Origin: Eledone cirrhosa | Lineage: Eukaryota | Direction: 5' to 3' | NCBI GenBank assembly: GCA_964016885.1 | Contig: OZ024752.1 | Coordinates: 39,742,001-39,806,000 of the forward strand | Length of the DNA stretch: 64,000 bases | Part shown: positions 6,723 to 62,787 of the stretch, one piece after another | Numbering within the stretch: position 1 is the stretch's first letter | How the letters are laid out: each line of letters starts with the position of its first letter | Made by a program: the position numbers and the translations under genes | The notes under the pieces: model-generated | Databases searched by the model: none | What the model was told of the DNA's origin: nothing | The model's input: the letters and a program-made list of their open reading frames with translations, nothing else

Positions 6723-6908
6723 ATACGTGTACAAGCTGCAAATGTACAAAATTCCAAAAGTTCAACTAATCGTGTTTTGTTGGTGAATGTAAATCAAAAC
6801 ATTAAACCTCCATATTTTATATCAACAACTGCTCAGATCACCCTACTTGAAACTATGCCTTTGGGAAAGATATCTTTAAAAATTGATCTTATTGATCCAG
6901 ACAATGAG
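6723..6908 (+). CDS. cadherin exon 1 in window (long, 62 aa)
   Basis: ttttccag|[32 protein letters not shown]...LLETMPLG...IDPDNE|gtaaaa. Confidence 0.88.

Positions 6909-62787: not shown

Follow-up and report, generated by a model that had tools for sequence, protein, structure and literature searches.

Canonical cadherin linkers bind three Ca2+ ions through the motifs xE, DRE, DxNDN, DxD and xDx, and in the cadherin ligand map the linker Asn, both Asp of DxD and the Asp of AxD together make up site 3. A cadherin repeat is about 4.5 nm long. Albertin 2015 reportedly describes an octopus giant cadherin with 'over 80' repeats, found also in Capitella. Reviews citing Wang and Ragsdale 2017 present, in excerpt, octopus CDHX as a giant cadherin of 77 repeats that is enriched in suckers (PMC6339937, PMC6110919).

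The better characterized relatives of the gene treated here are Cad99C and PCDH15. The features of this group, including non-canonical EC5-6 and EC9-10 joints, were set out by D'Alterio et al.; Cad99C is found on apical microvilli, where its ectodomain sets microvillus length (PMC2171266), and in the fly ear it works together with myosin VIIA and Sans (PMC6031363). The calcium motifs of cadherins are listed in an excerpt of PMC7547225. PCDH15 EC9 is without xE, DYE and DxNDN, yet it is preceded by a canonical-like EC8-9 joint (PMC5120219, in part). We consider it probable that the present locus encodes a giant cadherin of the Cad99C/PCDH15 group, with repeats copied from EC9 and with one Ca2+ plus an Arg pairing at each RNxxxP joint.

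Exon structure of the window and of the whole gene

The window is a stretch of 64,000 nucleotides on the forward strand (G000:C12:39742001-39806000) of a 3.0-Gb genome and codes for 14 of about 75 tandem repeats. Between 6723 and 62787 it holds 29 exons with AG/GT boundaries, of two alternating kinds: 15 are long (59-64 codons) and encode strands F-G, the linker and strands A-B, and 14 are short (39-48 codons) and encode strands C-D-E. In window coordinates they are:

6723..6908, +, long exon, predicted; strands F-G, linker [10 protein letters not shown] with DxD
11444..11560, +, short exon (C-D-E), predicted; lowest-scoring, start less certain
12449..12631, +, long exon, predicted; linker VVRNTYPP
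15288..15425, +, short exon, predicted
19863..20045, +, long exon, predicted; linker INRNKFAP
21664..21798, +, short exon, predicted
23210..23386, +, long exon; linker IIRDSNTL, without DxD, next F strand without AxD, predicted calcium-free joint
27736..27864, +, short exon, predicted
28996..29184, +, long exon, predicted; linker VLRNLNKP
30894..31016, +, short exon, predicted
31860..32045, +, long exon, predicted; linker IEKDSSFP
34555..34677, +, short exon, predicted
36203..36388, +, long exon, 3' junction spliced (run X4); linker VNRNPNYP
37154..37285, +, short exon, both junctions spliced (run X4)
38323..38511, +, long exon, both junctions spliced (run X4); linker IIRNKFGP, weak Pfam Cadherin match
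41634..41762, +, short exon, both junctions spliced (run X4)
41900..42085, +, long exon, both junctions spliced (run X4); linker IQRNLFKP
43249..43392, +, short exon, both junctions spliced (run X4)
43843..44034, +, long exon, both junctions spliced (run X4); linker IIRNKHAP
47280..47408, +, short exon, both junctions spliced (run X4)
48724..48909, +, long exon, both junctions spliced (run X4); linker VNRNLKTP
49810..49953, +, short exon, 5' junction spliced (run X4)
51819..52007, +, long exon, predicted; linker VIRNQNTP
53457..53588, +, short exon, predicted
55171..55359, +, long exon, predicted; linker TSSNQNAP
58583..58720, +, short exon, predicted
59891..60079, +, long exon, predicted; linker VLRNEHPP
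60409..60540, +, short exon, predicted
62602..62787, +, long exon, predicted; linker VIRNFHAP; the gene continues past both window ends

The 15 linkers comprise 11 of the RN type (RNxxxP), all confirmed on the + strand where expected, together with QN, RD, KD and SN, which is the composition given by the first-pass annotation. Its observations that no linker is of the DxND type and that DxD and AxD are mostly kept are likewise borne out in the window: DxNDN occurs in 0 of 15 linkers, and DxD and the F-strand AxD are intact downstream of 14, the exception being the exon at 23210-23386 (RDSNTL linker), where both are missing. A DRE-type motif ([LFV]D[RYF]E) is found in none of the 14 short exons. 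Matches to Pfam Cadherin were weak, under the curated cut-off, in 7 of the 10 single exons scanned.

Splicing was seen in one of three public runs (X1, X2 and X4), no run being annotated as RNA. A single run X4 contig of 18,414 nt joins 9 of 9 predicted junctions exactly, from 36388 to 49810, all GT..AG and with 0 mismatches, and shows no exon skipping across the junctions compared; none of these nine joints was seen in runs X1 and X2. The contig extends 18,351 nt beyond the exon at 36203, in agreement with 16,665 nt of remaining block and a C-terminus of about 500 aa, and this length by itself suggests that the remainder of the block and the C-terminus belong to one transcript. Phase 0-0 was assumed for every exon in the search and checked at these nine junctions; with this phase modelled over the whole block, skipping of a long-short pair would remove one repeat in frame and could tune the length of the protein.

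The introns are rich in (AT)n and contain eight minisatellites with 89-98% matches, at 15852-17334 (period 55 bp), 24742-25553 (136 bp), 25858-27697 (14 bp), 33099-34487 (16 bp), 44155-44936 (128 bp), 45213-46675 (58 bp), 50124-50893 (191 bp) and 61368-61878 (55 bp). Decayed reverse-transcriptase fragments, which we take to be of LINE type, lie at 39564-40674, with a YADD motif near 39.7 kb, at 9525-9959 (-) and at 1264-1938 (-), the last of these ahead of the first exon of the window and the others within introns.

The whole gene covers about 435 kb, from about -143 kb to +292 kb in window coordinates, the window being its middle, and has about 85 cadherin repeats: eight N-terminal ones, a block of 75 and two more, followed by a membrane span and a tail. 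Linkers of the eight upstream repeats are, in order, DINDNTP, DGDDLDP, QDKNNP, DMNDNSP, a non-canonical EC5-6 joint, DINDNPP, DVQDSLP and DINDNTP, and these repeats carry DYE/DFE motifs. The block, from about -80 kb to +260 kb, consists of 150 exons encoding 75 repeats and 7,859 aa. On its 3' side come a repeat with IDYE, a canonical DVNEYSP linker, one further repeat, the membrane exon at +277.9 kb and the tail, whose predicted last exon ends in TTIL and was the sole candidate passing the filter within 50 kb. DxNDN is present in 0 of the 75 linkers following the first repeat of the block, while one VDRE occurs, in a repeat upstream of the window. Two first-pass statements, that the calcium-binding linker is rewritten and that LDRE is absent from every repeat, consequently hold throughout the window but not for the whole gene, which has canonical linkers and DYE motifs at its ends and a VDRE within the block.

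A six-frame count over the 664 kb examined (1.33 million positions) gives 44 instances of [VI]xRNxxxP, against 39 in the 7,859 aa of the block, so the motif is not due to chance. A pseudogene or an assembly artefact was considered and rejected because the 150 open exons strictly alternate, the block repeats are mutually only 27% identical on average (at most 45%), and splicing was seen. From the repeat length given above, about 85 repeats are predicted to measure roughly 0.4 micrometres.

In the distal half of the block (about +83 kb to +246 kb), a repeat resembles the next but one (0.27) more closely than it does its neighbours (0.24-0.25); in the proximal half (-76 kb to +80 kb), similarity is conspicuous at lags 6 (0.32) and 12 (0.31). 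This pattern points to the duplication of units of two and of six repeats, in which joints lacking Arg or DxD come back at fixed positions. Upstream of the window, at -22773 to -22459, a long and a short exon are fused into 105 codons, a single intron loss in the otherwise strict alternation. The block carries about one N-glycosylation sequon per repeat; N-glycosylation as the cause of the conserved linker Asn was rejected, the +2 position being mostly N, F or Y.

The membrane and tail exons match once in their own genome, in searches that give lower bounds, and no second gene copy was detected. A lone exon at G000:C889:59971-60087 (-), on an 83-kb contig with no other cadherin match, is 54% identical to the EC2-3 DGDDL exon and is perhaps part of a paralogue or of a related Cad87A/CDH23-type gene. 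Contig C2 carries clusters of single-exon cadherin frames of about 800 aa; together with the genome size and the (AT)n-rich introns, these clusters point to a cephalopod, probably an octopus.

Relatives, family assignment and origin of the block

Three protein searches, two of which reached 2,000 and 5,000 residues only, and one profile search gave at least 510 proteins among the matches listed (the profile list being the best 150 of 18,086), full-length cephalopod and annelid proteins not being among them. RN-type linkers are present in 55 of these approximately 510 listed matches, and the 45 with a species name consist of 43 from gastropods and bivalves plus Lingula and Tubulanus; the RN linker is common to gastropods, bivalves, a brachiopod and a nemertean. 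The two linker types divide sharply: of the first 120 proteins, 17 combine RN linkers with the absence of DxNDN and LDRE, a single one carries RN and canonical linkers in different regions, and all others are canonical. Between this gene and those of snails or clams the repeats correspond one by one, with 11 of 36 adjacent steps collinear in abalone and likewise in Gigantopelta where about 0.5 is expected; the array is therefore older than the divergence of these mollusc classes, and its repeats have stayed in order. Collinearity of repeat order was not detectable with Lingula (1 of 29 steps) or Tubulanus (1 of 21). As judged from the sequences, the RN motif is old and real, and it is probably functional.

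Several of these relatives call for comment as gene models. P0322, from Potamilus, has both ends and only 3,387 aa; either this model is incomplete, or molluscs may differ about threefold in their number of repeats. P0400 (Haliotis rubra) opens with the membrane span and tail of one member, after which comes another member's N-terminus; its contig equals in length those of P0121, P0124 and P0135, and the model likely represents tandem paralogues split and fused by annotation. P0397, a C-terminal fragment of the family, is filed under the apicomplexan Piridium sociabile and is probably contamination from its snail host.

The full-length bivalve member P0322 is collinear with mite Cad99C over EC1-9 (E 9e-99, 1,311 columns), and termite and mite Cad99C are, among the matches listed, the best near-full-length matches of its C-terminal 503 aa outside lophotrochozoans. 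Five PCDH15 structures (11iy, 5w1d, 6bxu, 6bwn and 6c13) align domain for domain. In a quick tree built on homologues, with 39 membrane-proximal regions as rows (7 of 46 being omitted as having no membrane span), the RN family is recovered with SH-aLRT support of 97, the RN family plus Cad99C with 97, and both with PCDH15 at 84, apart from CDH23/Cad87A; the present gene is not a row of this tree and matches family members exon by exon at both ends. The EC5-6 joint is without DxNDN in this gene, in P0322 and in P0123, and the last block repeat ends in ...NLGF, resembling the Cad99C EC9-10 linker. A single membrane span and a predicted C-terminal class I PDZ motif are present, with homologue C-termini TTML, TTLL and TTIL. 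In the MAD12 region the homologues align with Cad99C, but PF23206 (PCDH15_12th) does not match P0322, and the exons for this region were not found in the present gene. On these alignments, the gene has the Cad99C/PCDH15 sequence features of D'Alterio et al. except the count of 11 repeats, there being about 85 (8 + 75 + 2).

By collinearity and the tree, the gene is a lophotrochozoan orthologue of Cad99C/PCDH15 and, by descent, an EC9-amplified variant within that group, neither a standard member nor a separate cadherin class. The distinct class put forward by the first-pass annotation therefore gives way to an amplified module in an orthologue, on the grounds of collinearity, the tree and the canonical linkers at the ends. 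Membership of the Fat family, or of an unrelated novel class, could be argued from database labels, since most named homologues are labelled Fat or CELSR ('protocadherin Fat 4-like'), from the name CDHX, and from the summed PDB score, in which CELSR1 stands above PCDH15. Yet no EGF or laminin G Pfam match was found in the four family proteins scanned (P0322, P0123, P0294 and P0254), and collinearity and the tree group the gene with Cad99C, by which this alternative is largely refuted and keeps hardly any probability.

With regard to the source of the block, raw HMM scores place generic Fat-type domains at the head of the list and, in fish PCDH15, EC8 and not EC9 first; as this ranking is dominated by generic domains, a background-corrected score was used. 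In RN-versus-background scoring of 9,940 domains from 440 other proteins, Cad99C EC9 takes ranks 1, 3, 4 and 5, rank 2 being itself an RN-family fragment, and with the DRE loop and xE masked the same four EC9 domains rank 2, 4, 6 and 7. A fifth Cad99C-like EC9 ranks 220, still the top domain of its protein, and fish PCDH15 EC9 ranks 20, 59 and 93. Cad99C EC9 has L-x-x-D/E in place of DRE, and in three of five arthropod Cad99C sequences an R or K already closes its G strand, just before the EC9-10 linker.

These scores argue strongly that the block was likely built by copying Cad99C EC9 about 75 times, and, on the same comparison, much of the ligand loss is inherited from an EC9 that was already without DRE. 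EC9 would retain the upper ligands (DxD and AxD) from the canonical EC8-9 joint and be without DRE, for which reason a chain of EC9 copies would have the site-3 ligands only. The repeated exon pair would then fuse the EC9 G-strand end (VxVxR/K) to the upstream canonical linker N-x-x-x-P, one residue shorter.

Calcium ligands and the predicted joint

Ligands were scored in 74 repeats of the present gene and 902 other RN repeats, with 1,135 canonical repeats as comparison. The RN linker is one residue shorter than the canonical one, with Arg at the strand position of the first Asp and Asn still four residues before Pro. The site-3 positions are well kept, with N or D in the linker in 80% of own and 90% of other repeats, the two Asp of DxD in 85/93% and 80/89% (own/other), and the Asp of AxD in 82% and 93%. 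The linker Arg is present in 68% and 82%, the Glu of xE in 46% of the 74 and 68% of the 902, and the Asp of LxxD (at the Glu position of DRE) in 30% and 49%, while the two DxNDN Asp and the DRE Asp are no longer present. A full site-3 ligand set is found at 14 of 15 window joints and 50 of 73 block joints of the gene; Arg is present at 49 of these 73, and an acidic partner accompanies it in 45 of the 49. Net charge per 110-aa repeat is +1.1 in this gene, -2.4 in other RN repeats and -10.1 in canonical ones.

The site-3 ligands (N, D, D, D) are lost together in the 902 repeats (odds ratios 12-79), and they covary under within-clade permutation with small clades (z 3.2-5.7). The linker Asn covaries with DxD/AxD (z 3.2-4.7) and the Arg does not (z 0.1-1.7), the strongest coupling of the Arg being to the xE of its own repeat (z 6.6) and then to LxxD (z 5.2). 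As controls, coupling of the Arg to the xE and DxD of the next repeat has z 0.9 and 0.1, the former rising to 2.6 with larger clades. In the present gene, Arg follows 28 of 28 repeats with an acidic LxxD, as against 22 of 46 without, and xE and LxxD are hardly coupled mutually (odds ratio 1.2, p 0.2). A strict independent-pairs test, in which pairs were too few for significance at any residue pair, was not significant for R-xE (7.4 same versus 1.7 opposite, median p 0.11) or for R-LxxD (p 0.22), and its control, R with the next xE, leaned the same way (4.4 versus 0.9).

The covariation of the site-3 set and of Arg with xE/LxxD speaks for joints that each hold one Ca2+ and an Arg salt bridge. 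Each RNxxxP joint would bind one Ca2+ at site 3, where the Asn would remain a ligand, and the Arg, at the former first Asp of DxNDN, would salt-bridge xE and LxxD, which are normally ligands of Ca2+ 1-2. The predicted outcome is a rod of about 0.4 micrometres, extended and close to neutral in charge, that would need a third of the calcium and would hold occasional calcium-free hinges, only a minority of the joints of this gene being predicted to look calcium-free. An ion-free AlphaFold model of P0085, a 600-aa homologue (pLDDT 88, pTM 0.44), matches multi-domain cadherin rods, and, within the limits of that pTM of 0.44, its domain pairs lie at 5-7 A rmsd from straight two-domain crystals and at 13.8 A from the bent PCDH15 EC9-10. 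The earlier proposal that at most the site-3 ion is retained agrees with four conserved, covarying ligands, but xE and the LxxD Asp are often kept; its companion, that the Arg may replace the other cations, agrees with the covariation with xE and LxxD, the strict phylogenetic test being not significant.

Other readings of the joint account for part of these data. If site 3 binds Ca2+ and the Arg is a mere relic of the EC9 G strand, the joints would be floppy and the molecule an elastic, entropic tether, as could be argued from the R or K before the Cad99C EC9-10 linker, from the non-significant strict test, and from PCDH15 EC5-6, which binds at site 3 only and adopts three conformations (PMC7547225, in part); we hold this to be unlikely, given that R is kept in 82% of the 902 diverged repeats while adjoining surface positions vary, that its top coupling partner is xE, and that the linker is shortened. 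At seawater-level calcium, many joints might bind two ions, one at site 3 and one at a remodelled site formed by xE, LxxD and the second Asp of DxD, with the Arg as a second-shell partner. Partial two-ion linkers in PCDH15 EC2-3 and EC3-4 (PMC7547225, in part) and the frequent joint presence of xE and LxxD would fit such a site, but with both DxNDN Asp and the DRE Asp gone, and with acids that covary with Arg more than mutually or with DxD, it seems improbable. Least credible for the joint is the absence of any calcium, with the Arg capping the DxD/AxD acids and the rod being calcium-independent: near-neutral repeats would suit it, whereas the complete site-3 set is kept together and it is the Asn, not the Arg, that covaries with these acids, which makes this reading very improbable. 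One Ca2+ at site 3 together with an Arg salt bridge is accordingly the reading preferred here.

Significance and comparison with known systems

By orthology, the likeliest role may be that of a very long apical tether on microvilli. More doubtful than credible in our judgement, and offered tentatively, is the wider scenario in which molluscs and their relatives made the tip-link cadherin PCDH15/Cad99C into a filament of about 0.4 micrometres by serial copying of EC9, with Arg replacing two of three calcium ions, the filament serving, as in octopus suckers, to link microvilli to cuticle as a stiff tether largely independent of calcium, and the order of its stiff joints and calcium-free hinges having been kept since the cephalopod-snail-clam split. 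If the assignment is right, an orphan giant cadherin, probably CDHX and widely called Fat-like in databases, would join the Usher-syndrome PCDH15/Cad99C family, and one event, EC9 amplification, would explain both the size of the gene and its odd motifs. The RN array would offer a natural, many-times-repeated answer on tip-link chains with fewer than three calcium ions per joint; about 900 diverged joint copies make the Arg-for-calcium idea testable on a two-domain fragment, and the RN joint could be of use in designing low-calcium cadherin rods, among them shortened PCDH15 constructs.

The gene is probably the published sucker-enriched octopus CDHX, to which it was compared by description and which it fits in size and organism type, although 77 repeats (review) or, reportedly, 'over 80' (Albertin 2015) are given there and about 85 are counted here. 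The excerpts of the reviews call CDHX unique and give neither a Cad99C/PCDH15 link nor a linker motif. In the full-text literature searched, the RN linker and a giant mollusc PCDH15 orthologue are undescribed, the primary CDHX papers and supplements, which may mention them, lying outside that scope. The octopus 'pcdh15' of two expression papers was set aside, as this seems to be a label taken from BLAST for a clustered protocadherin.

With Cad99C/PCDH15 the gene shares collinear EC1-9 and final two repeats, the single membrane span, a DGDDL linker at EC2-3 with a Cys pair after it, joints of non-canonical type at EC5-6 and ahead of EC10, the C-terminal class I PDZ motif and, with Cad99C, the tail motif EPP..ETQ.L.M.V. 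It differs in having, where those proteins have 11 repeats, some 74 extra EC9-like copies on RNxxxP linkers, which occur in 0 of the 5 Cad99C-like and 0 of the 3 PCDH15 proteins examined.

In the case of the joint itself, a site-3-only precedent has been solved in PCDH15 EC5-6, where DRE and DxNDN are lost, DxD and xDx are kept, and one ion is seen in the crystal (PMC7547225, in part). That is a single flexible joint, PPNNQ, with no Arg, whereas the RN joints repeat the pattern over dozens of joints with a conserved Arg that covaries with the leftover acids. The calcium-free bent linkers of PCDH15 EC9-10 and Drosophila N-cadherin EC2-3 have likewise lost DRE and DxNDN, and EC9, from which the block likely derives, is the very domain before the PCDH15 bend; but those linkers also lose DxD and xDx, and they bend, while the RN joints keep both motifs and are modelled as extended.
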